Shown here: one piece after another, positions 1,478 to 61,372 of the stretch
How the letters are laid out: every line of letters begins with the position of its first letter
How positions within the stretch are numbered: position 1 is the first letter of the stretch
Notes under the pieces: model-generated
What the model was told of the DNA's origin: nothing
The model's input: only the letters and a program-made list of their open reading frames with translations
Databases searched by the model: none
Position numbers and translations under genes: made by a program
Assembly: GCA_038062455.1 (NCBI GenBank)
Contig: JBBTXE010000001.1
Location: 122,371 to 186,370, forward strand
Length of the DNA: 64,000 nt
Direction of reading: 5' to 3'
From: Patescibacteria group bacterium
GTDB taxonomy: Bacteria > Patescibacteriota > Microgenomatia > UBA12405

Positions 1478-2713
1478 ATGTATTCCTCAAACTCGTCACG
1501 GGGTTTTCGACCCCGTTTTAATAATAATCGCGGTCCTTCTCGCGGATTTAATAATAACCCTCGTCGATTTACCCGCCGTATCCCTGGCGTAGGCGGGCCT
1601 CGTTTTTCGGCTCAAAAAATCAATCCGGCTCTCTTTGTCAAAGCCGGTTCTGATTTTAAGAAAATTGAAGAACTTACCACCCTTCACTTCTTCGAAGATT
1701 TCAAATTAAACCCGATTCTTTTGGCCAATATTCTAGCCAAAGGTTTTACCAAACCCACCCTAATTCAGGATCAGGCCATTCTGCCAATTTTAGAAAATCG
1801 TGACCTTTTAGGTATTGCCGACACCGGTACCGGCAAAACTGCCGCCTTTGCCATTCCTCTTATTAATCGAATTTTAAAAAACCCCAACGAGCGGATTTTA
1901 ATCATGGCTCCCACCCGTGAACTAGCCATGCAAATTCGACAGGACATCCGTTCTTTTACCCCCGGTCTCCGGGTATTTTTGGCTATAGCTATTGGCGGCG
2001 CCCATTTACGTGAGCAAATCATTGATATCCGCCGCGGTCCTCATTTTATTATCGGTACTCCCGGCCGGATCAAAGATCTTGGTTCTCGTCGGGTTATTGA
2101 TTTTTCCAAAATGACTGTTTTAGTTCTCGATGAAGTCGACCGGATGCTTGACATGGGATTTATCCACGACATCAAGTCTATCGTTGATCAAACACCTAAA
2201 ACCCGCCAAACCTTATTTTTTTCCGCCACTGTTGACCGCAAGATCGAAACACTAATTGGTACCTTTCTCCAAAATCCCGTCAAATTATCCATCAGAGCTC
2301 AATCCTCGGCCGCTCACATTGATCAAAATATTGTTCGTATCCCCCGGGCTTTTAAAGAACAAAAACTTCACGAAATTATGGCCAAACCCGAATTTAAAAA
2401 GGTATTAGTTTTTGGAGCCACCCAGCGAATGGTCGAAAAACTATCGGTATCATTAACTAACAAGGGTTTCAAGGCTCAAAGTCTTCATGGCGGTAAACCC
2501 CAAAATAAAAGAACCCAGGTGATTAAAATGTATCGGGAAAATATTTTCAATATTTTGGTGGCCACTGATGTTGCCGCCCGCGGTCTTGACATTGCCGATA
2601 TTACCCACGTAATCAACTACGATCAACCCAATAATTACGACGACTACATTCACCGTATCGGCCGCACCGGCCGCGGCAATGCCCGAGGTTCTGCCCTGAC
2701 TTTTGTCGAATAA
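1478..2713 (+). CDS. DEAD-box ATP-dependent RNA helicase with Arg/Gly/Asn-rich N-terminal extension
   Basis: Helicase motifs present: TKPTLIQ (Q), ADTGTGKTAAF (I), LDEVDRML (II, DEVD variant), SAT (III), HRIGRTGRG (VI). Confidence 0.92.
   Translation: MYSSNSSRGFRPRFNNNRGPSRGFNNNPRRFTRRIPGVGGPRFSAQKINPALFVKAGSDFKKIEELTTLHFFEDFKLNPILLANILAKGFTKPTLIQDQAILPILENRDLLGIADTGTGKTAAFAIPLINRILKNPNERILIMAPTRELAMQIRQDIRSFTPGLRVFLAIAIGGAHLREQIIDIRRGPHFIIGTPGRIKDLGSRRVIDFSKMTVLVLDEVDRMLDMGFIHDIKSIVDQTPKTRQTLFFSATVDRKIETLIGTFLQNPVKLSIRAQSSAAHIDQNIVRIPRAFKEQKLHEIMAKPEFKKVLVFGATQRMVEKLSVSLTNKGFKAQSLHGGKPQNKRTQVIKMYRENIFNILVATDVAARGLDIADITHVINYDQPNNYDDYIHRIGRTGRGNARGSALTFVE
1572..1597 (+). repeat. Hairpin repeat, GCGTAGGCGGG family, copy 1 (in frame inside the helicase N-terminus)
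   Basis: Sequence cccgccgtatccctggcgtaggcggg has a 6-bp stem cccgcc/ggcggg and encodes ..TRRIPGVGGPRF... It shares CGCCG...GCGTAGGCGGG with copies at 19483, 32513 and 61136. Confidence 0.7.
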
Positions 2714-18492: not shown

Positions 18493-19449
18493 TTGAGTTA
18501 TACTATAAATGTGTTTGATTTAATAAAAAAACTTACTCAAATCTCTCCTCGCTATGGTCATCGGGAAGCGGAAGCGGCCAAAGTAATTACCAATGAATTA
18601 AAATCACTTCAAATAAATTTTGTCGAAGAACCCTTCAGAACTGCGGTTCCCAAAATAATCAAAGCAGAGCTGTTTGCCGACGGAAAATCCATTCCTTGTC
18701 TTGGTAGCAGTTTAATTAGCGGTGAAATTAATAATGGTAATTATTTAATCAGTGCTTTTGGTCATTCTGGTAAGAATCGACCATACAACATCAGTTACAG
18801 TCCGATTACCGATGAAATTAGTGTTGTTGATATATATCAGGAACCGTCAGTAACTATTTCCAGAACTTCTATTGTCCAAATTACAATGGCTAAGGAAGTA
18901 AAAGGAATAATCGAAGTGGAAAAAGAAAAATATACTACCGAAAACATTTTGGTTGGAAATATTAGCAATCCAGAAAATATTATCATTGCCCACTTTGACT
19001 CGATTGTTGGTGATGGAGCTCTCGATAACGCAGCTGCGATTGCAGTAATGATTGAAACGATAAAACAAAAAGCAGTGGTGTTACAAAACACCCTTTTTAT
19101 TTTTGCCGGAAATGAGGAAATTTCCTACGATGACTACAAAATCAAAAGTGGCTATGGTTTTAGAATGTTTGAGTCAAAACATAGTAATGTTTTGGAAAAC
19201 GCCAAACAAATAATTGTTATCGATGGCATCGGGGTCAGTAGCCCGTCTTTTGTTCAAAATGGTCTTGATTGGGTATTACAAGTAAAGATGTTAGACAAAA
19301 TCAGAAGCAAAGTATTTTGGTTACAAAATGACCAAAGTGAAGTTTTGAAATATTTTCACACTAAAGCCGATATTATTGAAAATTTGTCAGAGAAATATTT
19401 AAAAGAAGCCCAAGCTACTTTGATAAATAAGCTTTCTAATCGGTTATAA
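18493..19449 (+). CDS. M28-like metallopeptidase family protein (non-ATG start)
   Basis: IIIAHFDSIVGDGALDNAAAIAVMIE resembles the M28 H.D...G..DN.sG metal-binding segment. Confidence 0.45.
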   Translation: MSYTINVFDLIKKLTQISPRYGHREAEAAKVITNELKSLQINFVEEPFRTAVPKIIKAELFADGKSIPCLGSSLISGEINNGNYLISAFGHSGKNRPYNISYSPITDEISVVDIYQEPSVTISRTSIVQITMAKEVKGIIEVEKEKYTTENILVGNISNPENIIIAHFDSIVGDGALDNAAAIAVMIETIKQKAVVLQNTLFIFAGNEEISYDDYKIKSGYGFRMFESKHSNVLENAKQIIVIDGIGVSSPSFVQNGLDWVLQVKMLDKIRSKVFWLQNDQSEVLKYFHTKADIIENLSEKYLKEAQATLINKLSNRL

Positions 19450-19482
19450 TACATTCACTCTCTAAAGTAAAAGCGGGCTTGT

Positions 19483-19508
19483 CTCGCCGAAGCTTTAGCG
19501 TAGGCGGG
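19483..19508 (+). repeat. Hairpin repeat, GCGTAGGCGGG family, copy 2 (abuts and overlaps the 5' end of tRNA-Pro)
   Basis: ctcgccgaagctttagcgtaggcggg. Its last 4 nt are the first 4 nt of the tRNA. Confidence 0.7.
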
Positions 19509-19578
19509 GATTGGCGCAATTGGCTAGCGCGCACGGATGGGGTCCGTGAGGTTGCAGGTTCAAATCCTGTATCCCCGA
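19505..19578 (+). tRNA. tRNA-Pro (anticodon GGG)
   Basis: Hand-folded cloverleaf: acceptor cggggat/atccccg, D arm gcgc-aattggcta-gcgc, anticodon arm cacgg-atGGGgt-ccgtg, T arm gcagg-ttcaaat-cctgt. 74 nt, CCA not encoded. Confidence 0.9.
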
Positions 19579-19648
19579 CAACGTAATGCCGATAAAATCG
19601 GCAAACGTTGTCAGGAACGTTATCTGATTAACATCAGATTTACGTTCC
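19577..19648. terminator. Two consecutive long perfect hairpins between tRNA-Pro and the convergent gene
   Basis: gacaacgt-[tgccgat aaa atcggca]-acgttgtc (19577-19612) and ggaacgt-t-atctgat-taac-atcagat-tt-acgttcc (19614-19648), followed by cctttt. Confidence 0.5.
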
Positions 19649-22781: not shown

Positions 22782-24425
22782 ATGTTTAACTCGTTTCTTT
22801 CCAAATTTAAAACTCTCTTCGGTAGTCCAGCCGCCACGCCTCCCGAACCGAATACACCTGTCATTCCCGTTTCACCCGCCGAAGCTCCCGCGGCGGTGGG
22901 CGCTGATAAAAGCAATCGGGTAGTCTTTGTCGCCAAAAAAACAGCTAAAAAAAGCAAGGCGGTATCCGCCGCAGTTCCCGCAACAGCGGGAACCCAACCC
23001 ACCTCACCTGTTTACACCCCACCGGCAATCGATGTCCAAGTCAAGACCGCCGCGGCGGCCCAAGTTATTATCGACAACGCCCGCCGACTCGAAGCCGCCG
23101 CGGCGGCTAAAGAAGCCGAAGTCTTTCAAAGGTTGAAGTCTCTTGATGACAAAGAAAGATATCTAATTCAAAAAGAGCAAAGTCTCGATAGTAAAGATCA
23201 ACAAGTCAGTAAAAAACTTGAAGCCATCGATGAACTTTATCGAAAACAGTTGGACAAACTCGAGGCCATCTCCGGTCTGGATGTCGAAAAAGCCAAGCAA
23301 CTTTTAATGAGCTCGACGGAAAAGAAAATGAGTAGCTGGCTTGCCAAAAAAATCGATGAAACTAAAGATGGGCTTAAAACTCGCCAAGAAGAATTAGCCA
23401 AGGAAATAATTTTAGACGGTATCACCCACGGGGTGACTGATTATGTGGCCGAATATACCGTTTCCACTATGACTCTCCCCGATGACAAGATCAAGGGAAA
23501 AATTATCGGCCGCGAAGGCCGCAATATCCGTTCTTTTGAAAAAGCTACCGGAGTTGAATTGGAATTGGATGAATCCAATGATATTCGGATTTCCTCCTTT
23601 GATTCCACCCGTCGGGAAATTGCCCGTCTCTCTTTAGAGAAATTAATCCGCGATGGCCGGATTCAGCCGGTCAGAATCGAACAAATTGTGGCTCAAACCA
23701 AAGCTGATATGGACAAAATTTTGGTTAATGAAGGTAAACGGATTTGCCAAGAAGTCGGGGTTTTCAACATCCCCATTGACCTGATTAAAGAAGTCGGTAA
23801 ATTTAAATTTCGTTTTTCCTATGGTCAGAATTTAGCCAAACACACGGTCGAAGCAGTTAAAATTGCCGTCGCCATTGCTTTTGAATTAAAAGCCGATGTT
23901 AATACGGTTCGCCTCGGCGCCCTCTTCCATGACATTGGCAAAGTCATCACCGATTCCGAAGGGACCCATGTTGATCTTGGCATTGATCTTTTACGTCGCT
24001 ATAAAATTTCCGAAGCAGTAATCAATACCGTCGCCGAACACCACGAAGACAAACCCTTTTCCTCACTTGAGTCCACTATTGTCTATCTTGGCGATGCCGC
24101 TTCCGGTGCCCGCCCCGGTGCCCGCTACGAAGTCCACGAGGAATATTTAAAACGGATGAAAAACATCGAGGAAGTGGCCAAATCCTTTGCCGGAGTCTTA
24201 AGTGTCGCCGCTTATCAGGCCGGCCGGGAAGTAATGGTTATTGTGGAGCCCAGTCAGATTTCCGATGACGAGGCCACAGTTCTGGCTCAAAATATTGCCG
24301 ATAAACTGGACGAAGAAGCTAAGTGGGCCGGTCAAATTAAGGTCAATGTTATTCGTGAATTTAGAAGTTCTGCCACCGTCGTTGGTAGCAAGATCAGTAA
24401 TAATGCGGTGAAAAATGGCGAATAG
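22782..24425 (+). CDS. rny: Ribonuclease Y with Pro/Ala-rich N-terminal extension
   Basis: KH domain (IIGREGRNIRSFEKATGVELELD) plus HD domain (LFHDIGK...AEHHED). Confidence 0.9.
   Translation: MFNSFLSKFKTLFGSPAATPPEPNTPVIPVSPAEAPAAVGADKSNRVVFVAKKTAKKSKAVSAAVPATAGTQPTSPVYTPPAIDVQVKTAAAAQVIIDNARRLEAAAAAKEAEVFQRLKSLDDKERYLIQKEQSLDSKDQQVSKKLEAIDELYRKQLDKLEAISGLDVEKAKQLLMSSTEKKMSSWLAKKIDETKDGLKTRQEELAKEIILDGITHGVTDYVAEYTVSTMTLPDDKIKGKIIGREGRNIRSFEKATGVELELDESNDIRISSFDSTRREIARLSLEKLIRDGRIQPVRIEQIVAQTKADMDKILVNEGKRICQEVGVFNIPIDLIKEVGKFKFRFSYGQNLAKHTVEAVKIAVAIAFELKADVNTVRLGALFHDIGKVITDSEGTHVDLGIDLLRRYKISEAVINTVAEHHEDKPFSSLESTIVYLGDAASGARPGARYEVHEEYLKRMKNIEEVAKSFAGVLSVAAYQAGREVMVIVEPSQISDDEATVLAQNIADKLDEEAKWAGQIKVNVIREFRSSATVVGSKISNNAVKNGE
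22974..22993 (+). repeat. Hairpin repeat, TTCCCGC/GCGGGAA family, copy 1 (in frame in rny)
   Basis: gttcccgc-aaca-gcgggaac, a perfect 8-bp stem, encoding ..AVPATAGT.. Confidence 0.75.
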
Positions 24426-32261: not shown

Positions 32262-32567
32262 CTTCGTGGAAATCGATAAGCCGGATTCTGTTTATGGGCC
32301 ATCTATCTAATCTCTCCACCTGGTGCTCTTAAAGTCAAAAGCATAACGCACCGATTTGAGATTTCCACGGAAAGGTTGCCCGTTTCATATCATCCTCGGT
32401 CCGGCTAAAGCCGAGACCGGGACTACTCGTCTCTGTTGCAGAGCCGTCCGATTGCTCGGACCCCTACCTATTCGGGTTTCCTGACTTTGGTGGTCCGGAC
32501 TTTCCTTTTCACCTCGCCGAAGCCGTTAGGCGTAGGCGGGCTATTAGCCCTTCAATTTCTCCGAAGT
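32262..32567 (-). ncRNA. rnpB: RNase P RNA, bacterial type A, short (~305 nt)
   Basis: The minus-strand reading contains AAAAGGAAAGUCCGGACC (CR-I), GCAACAGAGA, UUAAGAGCACC and ACAGAAUCCGGCUUAUCG (CR-V). P1 pairs acuucggagaaau (5') with auuuccacgaagu (3'). Ends are +/-10 nt. Confidence 0.92.
32513..32540 (+). repeat. Hairpin repeat, GCGTAGGCGGG family, copy 3 (inside rnpB, P3-region hairpin)
   Basis: ctcgccgaagccgttaggcgtaggcggg. In the RNA sense this is cccgccuacgccuaacggcuucggcgag, immediately 5' of CR-I. Confidence 0.7.
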
Positions 32568-32655: not shown

Positions 32656-32832
32656 TTAACTTAACGTGGCTGCATCAGCAGCGGATAAAATCTTGAACAT
32701 TTTAACTCCGGTGGCTGGATCAATCGCTTGAGCGGCCGGTCGGCCGTTTTTAAGCATCACTTTCGTAACTTTAGATACATCTACTTCAACTGTCTTTCTT
32801 GATTTAACTGAATAAAACTTGATGGTTGGCAT
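32656..32832 (-). CDS. Small protein (58 aa), Cys-less DUF5679-like
   Basis: Below the track cutoff. Strong RBS aaaaaggaggtgagcatttataATG. MPTIKFYSVKSRKTVEVDVSKVTKVMLKNGRPAAQAIDPATGVKMFKILSAADAATLS. Confidence 0.55.
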   Translation of the reverse strand: MPTIKFYSVKSRKTVEVDVSKVTKVMLKNGRPAAQAIDPATGVKMFKILSAADAATLS

Positions 32833-32864
32833 TATAAATGCTCACCTCCTTTTTAAATCTATAT

Positions 32865-32981
32865 TCACTTCCAAACATAATACATTGTAACTACGATTGC
32901 AATAGCGGCTACACTTAACAGGAAACTTTTGAGCAAATCTCGGCCAAGATTCGAGTTGCTTTTTTCCTCTACTGGCTTCAT
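32865..32981 (-). CDS. Possible 38-aa membrane peptide
   Basis: GGAG 5 nt upstream of the ATG. MKPVEEKSNSNLGRDLLKSFLLSVAAIAIVVTMYYVWK has one TM helix. Speculative. Confidence 0.25.
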   Translation of the reverse strand: MKPVEEKSNSNLGRDLLKSFLLSVAAIAIVVTMYYVWK

Positions 32982-33022
32982 CAGCTCCAGTATAGCATCC
33001 ATTCTGTTAGAATTAATAACCA

Positions 33023-61030: not shown

Positions 61031-61031
61031 G

Positions 61032-61102
61032 TTACCCCGCATGGATTCGAACCACGATTCCTACGTTCAGAGCGTAGTGGCTTACCATTGGCCGACGGGG
61101 TA
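61032..61102 (-). tRNA. tRNA-Gln (anticodon CUG)
   Basis: Hand-folded: acceptor uaccccg/cggggua (U1-A72), D arm ggc-caaugguaa-gcc, anticodon arm cuacg-cuCUGaa-cguag, T arm cgugg-uucgaau-ccaug. 71 nt, CCA not encoded. Confidence 0.85.
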
Positions 61103-61135
61103 TTGTAAAAACTTATTGTTAAAAAACCGACCTAC

Positions 61136-61161
61136 CTCGCCGTAACTTCAGCGTAGGCGGG
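61136..61161 (+). repeat. Hairpin repeat, GCGTAGGCGGG family, copy 4 (33 nt upstream of tRNA-Gln)
   Basis: ctcgccgtaacttcagcgtaggcggg. Confidence 0.7.
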
Positions 61162-61207
61162 CGGGATATAAATTGTCTTATTTTACCCCAACCCATTATA
61201 ATAGGCC

Positions 61208-61372
61208 ATGCAAACCTTTGAAGAACTAGCGCTCGAATTAAAACTTGACCCAAAACAGTCTCAAGCCATCAAAACCTATTTTGAAAATCTGATCGTCGAA
61301 CTTTTAGAAAGCCTTAAAGTCGACAATCTTGAAAATTTTGACGACACCATTAACTCGGTACGATCAGGGTAG
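61208..61372 (+). CDS. Possible small acidic protein (54 aa)
   Basis: Below the track cutoff. MQTFEELALELKLDPKQSQAIKTYFENLIVELLESLKVDNLENFDDTINSVRSG. Overlaps the convergent MBL gene by 9 nt. Confidence 0.25.
   Translation: MQTFEELALELKLDPKQSQAIKTYFENLIVELLESLKVDNLENFDDTINSVRSG

Follow-up and report, generated by a model that had tools for sequence, protein, structure and literature searches.

We studied a family of short hairpins in a 64,000-nt stretch of a Patescibacteria group bacterium (assembly GCA_038062455.1, contig JBBTXE010000001.1, positions 122,371 to 186,370 of the forward strand), hereafter the window. The window encodes a DEAD-box RNA helicase, RNase Y (rny), RNase P's RNA component (rnpB) and two tRNAs, each of which carries or adjoins a member of the family (Table 1). 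The 11-mer GCGTAGGCGGG occurs exactly four times, at 1587, 19498, 32530 and 61151, always on the plus strand, and 14-16 nt 5' of each occurrence lies C(C/T)CGCC-G(A/T)A-NC, which gives a hairpin of 26-28 nt. The resulting pattern, C(C/T)CGCC-GNANC-loop-GCGTAGGCGGG, thus has four plus-strand copies, three of them in or beside stable-RNA genes. A first-pass annotation of this DNA had reported the same four copies in one orientation, and the positions and contexts that it gave, in the helicase gene, across four nucleotides of tRNA-Pro, within rnpB and 33 nt from tRNA-Gln, all proved correct. Two points refine its description of stems kept complementary with the help of G-U pairs. In the helicase copy and in the tRNA-Gln copy the apical stem is degenerate, and the RNase P RNA contains the reverse complement of the dispersed motif, in which the G-U pair turns into a C-A mismatch or a bulged A.

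With at most one mismatch allowed, 0.31 occurrences of GCGTAGGCGGG are expected, and in 100 shuffles that kept the dinucleotide composition four or more were never reached. The left arms are conserved as well, and between the tRNA-Pro and rnpB copies both arms match throughout (11 + 11 nt, 22 of 22 bases). A covariance model gave four strong matches in the window, all on the plus strand, with scores of 36-45 bits (E <= 7e-7), partly by construction since the 40 family members used to build it include the four window copies; the next match scored 13 bits. GC skew is negative throughout the window, strongly and uniformly so (-0.09 to -0.155), and the window therefore lies within one replichore with a C-rich plus strand. 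The closest relatives of the encoded proteins are labelled Patescibacteria, Microgenomates group or Shapirobacteria by their sources, and these names bear out the initial assignment to the Candidate Phyla Radiation (CPR). An archaeal origin of the window was ruled out, as tRNA identity pairs and proteins are bacterial.

Table 1. Positions of the hairpin units and of the genes that carry or flank them, numbered from the first base of the window.
Feature	Position	Strand	Description
Copy 1	1568..1597	+	30-bp in-frame insertion in the helicase gene, TTTA-CCCGCC-GTATC-CCTG-GCGTA-GGCGGG; 40.1 bits
Helicase hairpin proper	1572-1597	+	within ORF 1478-2713, translated in frame as RRIPGVGG
DEAD-box RNA helicase gene, host of copy 1	1478..2713	+	from translation; homologues with Pfam DEAD/Helicase_C
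Upstream GCGGG	19473..19477	+	repeated directly at 19504-19508, where GCGGG covers leader base -1 and tRNA nt 1-4
Copy 2	19478..19508	+	31-nt unit CTTGT-CTCGCC-GAAGC-TTTA-GCGTA-GGCGGG; 45.2 bits
tRNA-Pro copy, hairpin proper	19483-19508	+	final 4 nt are tRNA-Pro nt 1-4
tRNA-Pro(GGG)	19505..19579	+	Rfam, ARAGORN; bacterial type, C1-G72 from acceptor-stem sequence
Decayed fifth copy	22869..22903	+	RNase Y N-terminal disordered linker; encodes SPAEAPAAVG; 13 bits
rnpB (RNase P RNA)	32268..32560	-	RF00373, 95.5 bits, gathering threshold 84
Copy 3	32507..32543	+	37-nt TTTCAC-CTCGCC-GAAGC-CGTTAG-GCGTA-GGCGGG-CTA, in place of the native 21-nt P3 hairpin; 38.3 bits
rnpB copy, hairpin proper	32513-32540	+	in the unaligned 36-nt P3 insert of the cmscan alignment, directly 5' of AGGAAAGUCC
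tRNA-Gln(CTG)	61031..61102	-	Rfam, ARAGORN; bacterial type, U1-A72 from sequence
Copy 4	61131..61161	+	31-nt unit CCTAC-CTCGCC-GTAAC-TTCA-GCGTA-GGCGGG; apical stem degenerate; 36.4 bits
tRNA-Gln copy, hairpin proper	61136-61161	+	33 nt upstream of tRNA-Gln, which is on the opposite strand

Comparison of orthologues shows that the helicase copy is a recent gain. The ten residues that it encodes, FTRRIPGVGG, belong to the Arg/Gly-rich N-terminal tail of the protein; none of the 11 orthologues compared, the most distant of them 68% identical, contains them. In a 90%-identical orthologue (L126, L128) the empty site reads CGTCGA/CCTAGG, whereas the window has CGTCGA/TTTACCCGCCGTATCCCTGGCGTAGGCGGG/CCTCGT, a clean 30-bp in-frame insertion. 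The decayed fifth copy, in rny, shares its 5' flank TTTCAC with the rnpB copy. At the orthologous RNase Y site of the closest relative (L129) the model scores 27.6 bits, and a second L129 copy, 135 nt downstream, scores 21.7 bits; the two encode SPAGASAAAG and SPAGALAAVG, and one RNase Y copy is found only in L129. In the RNase Y frame the canonical GCG-TAG-GCG would give a stop, and the copies have GCG-GCG-GCG or GCG-GCG-GTG. The RNase Y linker holds older, decayed copies common to both lineages; the family is therefore older than the lineage split and has been active since then in both.

The second case is rnpB itself. The gene order miaA, AI-2E transporter, rnpB, small open reading frames (ORFs), DUF4446 is kept in four relatives, whose AI-2E proteins are 97, 86, 71 and 67% identical to that of the window. 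In the alignment the rnpB of L129 is almost identical to that of the window outside P3, but its P3 is AUCCGGUGUUUACACCGAGAU (21 nt) as against UAGCCCGCCUACGCCUAACGGCUUCGGCGAGGUGAAA (37 nt) in the window; in the other three relatives P3 is short (4-6 bp) and different in each. A native P3 would be inherited vertically with the remaining rnpB, and the window P3 departs from this pattern. The four relatives have unrelated short P3 helices while the rest of rnpB is conserved; the hairpin in P3 is therefore not ancestral, and the dispersed hairpin recently replaced the native P3. Canonical copies were found neither in 42 kb of the closest relative nor in 59 kb of the three others. The alignment with related CPR genomes is the check that the first-pass annotation had proposed for its two suggestions. 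The mobile hairpin, for which it had cited the helicase copy, is supported both by the in-frame insertion with its empty site in the 90%-identical orthologue and by the P3 replacement relative to the four genomes. A structural motif shared by RNase P RNA and pre-tRNA leaders is not supported in the form proposed, the rnpB copy being recent and antisense to the tRNA-Pro copy.

The window rnpB is reduced (about 290 nt), and the archaeal Rfam model scores best (95.5 bits); the clan's other RNase P families also matched, with lower scores, and were suppressed. The reduced form agrees with a report that CPR RNase P RNAs are diverged, with helices missing or extended, and hard to detect and to fold (PMC8172020). 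Hairpins of the family also occur in other RNase P RNAs. In relative L131, P12 is formed by a weak antisense family-like hairpin. In a Geobacter rnpB (L115, 2586-2977), a class A RNase P RNA of 307 bits, P3 is the hairpin in antisense form and the tip of P12 is a sense-form variant, CCGCCGAAGCUUAUGCGAAGGCGGG; this RNA also has an additional palindrome, CCCUCCGGCGGGUAACCGGCGGAGGG, near its 3' end. Upstream of the window rnpB and on the same strand are two small ORFs of 58 and 45 aa (32656-33002, minus strand). A 57-58-aa ORF is found near rnpB in all four relatives and a 41-45-aa ORF in two (L129, L131); the small ORFs have no Pfam match.

That the copies are a chance likeness of GC-rich helices, or products of assembly, has an almost negligible probability. 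The words CCCGCC/GGCGGG are common in the genome through Pro-Ala codon pairs, and the P12 and P3 stems of RNase P RNA are generally GC-rich, but neither accounts for shuffles that never reach four copies, for two copies that share every arm base, or for a documented insertion and replacement. The window hairpins are the same in independent assemblies from several samples (L001-L004, L214-L235) and are therefore not assembly artefacts.

The family extends well beyond the window. A pattern scan of representative genomes was loose and returned mostly chance matches in high-GC genomes, among which a subset shares features that the pattern left free. When viral contigs were scanned more stringently, more than 120 pattern matches resulted, which contain the same well-formed subset. 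Its members have in common (C/T)TTG(Y)C-(N)-CGCC-GNAGC-stem-loop-GCGNA-GGCGG-(R), a unit with CTTGYC as its conserved 5' flank. The apical stem of the unit is of 2-5 bp and the apical pair covaries (CG 22, UA 10, AU 1). The base before CGCC likewise covaries with the base after GGCGG, as C-G or T-A (cttgCc..GGCGGg against cttgTc..GGCGGa), and L165, an unrelated metagenomic locus, carries the compensated arm variant CGCT/AGCG. Covariation and compensatory change are evidence that the hairpin is under constraint. They bear as well on the proposal that a dimeric protein, for instance a regulator or recombinase, binds the dyad CGCC-N16-GGCG in double-stranded DNA. The symmetry of the motif and the position of the tRNA-Gln copy between divergent promoter-like sites would suit such a site. 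T-G wobbles and compensatory changes, however, indicate pairing within one strand, the spacer ranges from 14 to more than 20 nt, and copies lie in coding regions, rnpB and tandem arrays, which makes the proposal highly improbable. As to the internal loop, a K-turn, a bulge-helix-bulge and a bulged-G (sarcin-ricin) motif were rejected, the loop being a symmetric 3x3, and the mini-hairpin GCGNAGC was rejected for its mismatched register. Derivation from rRNA (16S, 23S or 5S) or from the 3' end of a tRNA was likewise rejected, as only partial word matches were found.

Hosts among the Patescibacteria include Moraniibacteria, Magasanikbacteria and Liptonbacteria; one Moraniibacteria locus (L098) has seven model matches in 8 kb on one strand. 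The Alpha-, Gamma- and Deltaproteobacteria are represented by Rhizomicrobium, Bradyrhizobium, Pseudomonadales, Desulfobacterales and Geobacter, and further hosts are Acidobacteria, among them Vicinamibacterales, and Verrucomicrobia. The Rhizomicrobium copy is identical to the window tRNA-Pro copy over 24 of 24 nt. Tandem arrays of the unit occur, also on viral contigs, and a contig that encodes a T7-type head-tail connector protein (L327) has six copies in 13 kb. The family thus spans many phyla and viral contigs, partly as tandem arrays. As background, 828 kb of unrelated bacterial DNA, from 80 bacteria gathered via RecA, holds one strong match, against four in the window. Some copies lie within genes: a unit at 2398-2432 of L213, another CPR contig, is part of a 469-aa membrane-protein ORF and encodes PARRSSGEGG in the same frame as FTRRIPGVGG of the helicase, and L010 purL has a unit inside the gene in antisense. 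In Magasanikbacteria (L011, 650-935) three family hairpins fall in the span of a 23S rRNA match, among them an inverted doublet that makes up a long palindrome; an expansion segment or intervening sequence is a possible explanation. Inverted doublets also occur in L068 and L245.

A spread of this kind could reflect a generic RNA hairpin signal for a universal enzyme, acting in processing, stability or termination, borne by phages and cells and re-created or transferred since it would work independently of the host. The dense intergenic viral arrays beside structural genes (capsid in L273, head-tail connector in L327), the conserved GNA/GNA internal loop with its covarying apical stem, and the range of phyla are in keeping with such a signal. 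We consider it quite unlikely, as both orientations to transcription are found and as cleavage or termination would be harmful inside essential RNAs and coding regions, where copies lie. In addition, no U-tract follows the hairpins; a terminator scan finds none at the tRNA loci, and its sole match, GGGCTATTAGCCC (32538-32550), is inside rnpB and overlaps the last three bases of the rnpB copy. Nor does any Rfam family come near its gathering threshold at the window hairpins, 14 loci, the alphaproteobacterial composite described below or the arrays, even with relaxed thresholds. A literature search by sequence returned only Pseudomonas tables of repetitive extragenic palindromic (REP) elements and not this repeat, and a BLAST search of a phage array against reference phages gave no match.

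The first-pass annotation had asked whether the motif is enriched beside tRNA genes; it is, and the enrichment is seen again in other phyla. Well-formed units lie within 100 nt of a tRNA in 6 of 46 cases, as against 1 of 115 other pattern matches, that one being itself a real unit; by our own estimates, about 0.4% of random positions and 3-4% of random intergenic positions would be so placed. Three units are fused on the same strand to a tRNA 5' end: that of the window tRNA-Pro, one at tRNA-Gly of a gammaproteobacterium (L071) and one at tRNA-Trp of a Moraniibacterium (L101). All three have the form GCGGG/C(A)TTG...GCGTAG/GCGGG-tRNA. Such a fusion reads as a unit of about 31 nt inserted after tRNA nt 4-5, in which the terminal GCGGG of the unit would rebuild the tRNA while the displaced GCGGG would remain upstream as a decoy arm. 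The association with tRNA 5' ends would then arise because the unit ends in GCGGG, the bases with which many tRNAs begin. For tRNA-Pro, insertion after nt 4 implies an uninserted form with a leader ...AAAAG followed by CGGGGATTGG. The predicted minimum-free-energy fold of pre-tRNA-Pro (-46.6 kcal/mol) pairs the upstream GCGGG with the left arm of the unit in a CUUGU-loop hairpin and leaves the cloverleaf formed, whereas forcing the hairpin of the first-pass annotation yields -42.2 kcal/mol, which is 4.4 dearer, and disrupts the acceptor stem; the fold therefore supports the insertion reading of the fusions. The GCGGG flank may reflect a target preference, template switching at this microhomology with tandem-array donors, or the survival of harmless insertions only. 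The flank is lacking at the helicase and rnpB sites.

These fusions could instead point to selection rather than mobility, if the hairpin were a functional RNA module of tRNA 5'-end maturation, in which a leader hairpin sequesters tRNA nt 1-4/5, switches to the upstream decoy and perhaps contacts a complementary P3. The enrichment in several phyla, the identical register at three tRNA 5' ends and the decoy arm present in all three fusions agree with such a module, and the two folds predict a switch. Furthermore, P3 in the genome's own RNase P RNA is an exact complement of the arms of the tRNA-Pro leader copy, and a minus-strand promoter-like site would put the tRNA-Gln copy in the tRNA-Gln leader. 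Nonetheless we regard the module as unlikely. The P3 copy was gained recently and four relatives lack it, its loop does not complement that of the leader copy, and 40 of the 46 family members are not near a tRNA; copies are found in helicase, rny, purL and membrane-protein genes and in intergenic phage arrays. The phage units (L327, L273) are on the strand opposite to the single annotated structural gene, so their RNA would apparently be antisense. Orientation to transcription is inconsistent more generally, being antisense in the window rnpB and the Geobacter P3 and sense in the tRNA fusions. Because RNase P RNA has the reverse complement in both these cases, no single RNA-level sequence function fits every copy, and an RNA-level function common to all copies is unlikely. 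A function restricted to tRNA leaders, or a generic hairpin acting in processing or stability, retains some probability. The fuller proposal of a cross-phylum module of tRNA 5'-end biogenesis, whose 3' arm is tRNA nt 1-4/5 and which with the GCGGG decoy makes a three-arm switch gating the acceptor stem, and hence RNase P cleavage, with a leader that could pair with the new P3, is in our view very unlikely.

We therefore favour, with a probability of roughly 0.62, the reading that these GC-rich imperfect palindromes of about 30 nt are a non-coding miniature repeat of REP-like type that spreads as DNA and persists where a hairpin is tolerated. New copies would arise in DNA and last only where an extra hairpin does no harm: at the tip of a variable helix of a structured RNA such as P3, in a leader or spacer beside a tRNA gene, or in a disordered protein linker if the unit lands in a stop-free frame. 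Spread would proceed through a single-stranded hairpin intermediate, and the presumed mobiliser, acting in trans, would be an HUH/Y1 enzyme similar to IS200/IS605 transposases or to the REP-associated tyrosine transposases (RAYTs); copying by microhomology-driven template switching at GCGGG is an alternative. A REP-type, single-strand route is supported by the tandem junction within arrays, described below, and by the placement of all copies here and in the sister genome L129 on one strand, together with the uniformly negative skew of the window.

Several points weigh against this reading. Pfam scans and ORF inspection of the window and of sequence adjoining the sampled arrays gave no transposase, RAYT or reverse transcriptase. 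The flanks of the copies differ, no target rule covers all of them, and the helicase insertion has no target-site duplication. Across genomes, strand orientation is not significantly related to GC skew (28 versus 18, p = 0.18). No empty site or polymorphism was obtained for the tRNA-Pro and tRNA-Gln copies, which are fixed in all strain-level contigs, with the qualification that look-ups of the tRNA flanks by exact protein gave contigs of the same species only, with identical hairpins. GTAG lies within the hairpin and some copies are intragenic, unlike in classical REPs. Finally, such near-identity in different phyla is unusual for selfish DNA and could instead point to a shared function, and the apparent conservation is inflated because the collection searches required identical arms.

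With the RAYT-associated REP elements of Proteobacteria and their doublets (REPINs) the units share short (20-40 nt) GC-rich imperfect palindromes in many dispersed copies, here four to five in the 64-kb window and, as given above, seven and six in the short L098 and L327 stretches. Both have GTAG next to a GCGGG...CCCGC stem, and CTTG loops and inverted doublets (here in L011, L068 and L245) are found in both. In REPs the palindrome directly follows a conserved GT(A/G)G. The window copies all have GTAG, inside the hairpin and 5' of the 3' arm, and it takes the REP-canonical place only at tandem junctions or before a tRNA acceptor stem. A different hairpin is thus repeated here, with arms that pair across GNAGC-loop-GCGNA, so that GTAG falls in the internal loop. 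REPs and REPINs are extragenic by definition, whereas units here lie in coding sequences (helicase, rny, purL, L213) as well as in rnpB and 23S rRNA, and whereas a cognate RAYT gene is flanked by REPs, none was found in the window or among ORFs beside the sampled arrays. The tandem junction GTAG-GCGGG-CTTG-CCCGC-CGAAG nearly matches the Pseudomonas REP classes GTRGGAGCGGGCTTGCCCGCGAW (PMC3686654). The tabulated REP classes of Pseudomonas and Stenotrophomonas differ among RAYT orthogroups and strains (PMC3686654), but here one unit extends across phyla.

Rickettsia palindromic elements (RPEs), of 100-150 bp, are intergenic as well as in frame in protein genes of Rickettsia and its Rickettsiales relatives (PMC1779305). 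Selfish palindromes, in-frame insertion into genes and lineage-specific proliferation are common features, the inserts here being of about 10 residues in the helicase, RNase Y and L213 proteins; the present unit, however, has no sequence similarity to RPE-1 to RPE-8, is of 30-31 nt and crosses phyla. [quoted passage not shown] IS200/IS605 elements and palindromes derived from them resemble the family in (sub)terminal DNA hairpins, strand-specific insertion and the lack of target duplication in the helicase. They are longer than 100 bp, their left and right ends are distinct, and they insert 3' of a fixed target of four or five nucleotides; the units here are single hairpins with differing 5' sequences (CGTCGA, GCGGG, TTTCCT, ACCGA), and neither a tnpA gene nor a fixed target was found here. 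The family differs from REP/REPIN, RPE and STRR repeats in its size of about 30 nt, GNA/GNA loop, cross-phylum spread, P3 replacement and GCGGG-flanked tRNA fusions.

If the favoured reading holds, small CPR genomes too host an active miniature repeat, one that reshapes an essential ribozyme (P3), pre-tRNA leaders and protein linkers. It would concretely explain where at least one extended helix comes from, of the kind that hampers the detection and folding of CPR RNase P RNAs (PMC8172020). The presence of one 30-nt unit from Patescibacteria to Proteobacteria and phage contigs, with repeated GCGGG-flanked fusion to tRNAs, suggests very portable mobilisation or a shared function. Rfam lacks the family; adding it there as a repeat or hairpin model could curb the misannotation of structured-RNA helices and of small protein inserts.

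Some further observations concern the surroundings of the tRNA genes. Just upstream of tRNA-Pro lies an M28 peptidase gene (18493-19449, plus strand), of which the 795-kb sister genome has no close orthologue. The best matches to it are at most 76% identical, one named match (62%) comes from a Moranbacteria genome, and the contigs of its two nearest homologues contain no tRNA. This suggests that the segment beside tRNA-Pro is variable or horizontally acquired. RecA differs between the window and its closest relative. All seven strain-level contigs that include the tRNA-Gln region have the copy with the same sequence, and a short contig (L231, 1-30) begins exactly at this hairpin, as expected at a repeat. 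Next to it, at 61173-61222, promoter-like sites are present on both strands around a palindromic TATAAT (61196-61201). The plus-strand site precedes a conserved 54-aa ORF (61208-61372) with almost no leader; the minus-strand site is predicted to transcribe the hairpin and then tRNA-Gln. In Alphaproteobacteria (L012, 220-310; L087, 4440-4560) the hairpin belongs to a composite of several hairpins, about 90 nt long, which has no Rfam match and reads GCCTTCGC...GAAGGC, unit, ...GGCAAGCC; it follows tRNA-Tyr and tRNA-Val on their own strand, 33-80 nt downstream.

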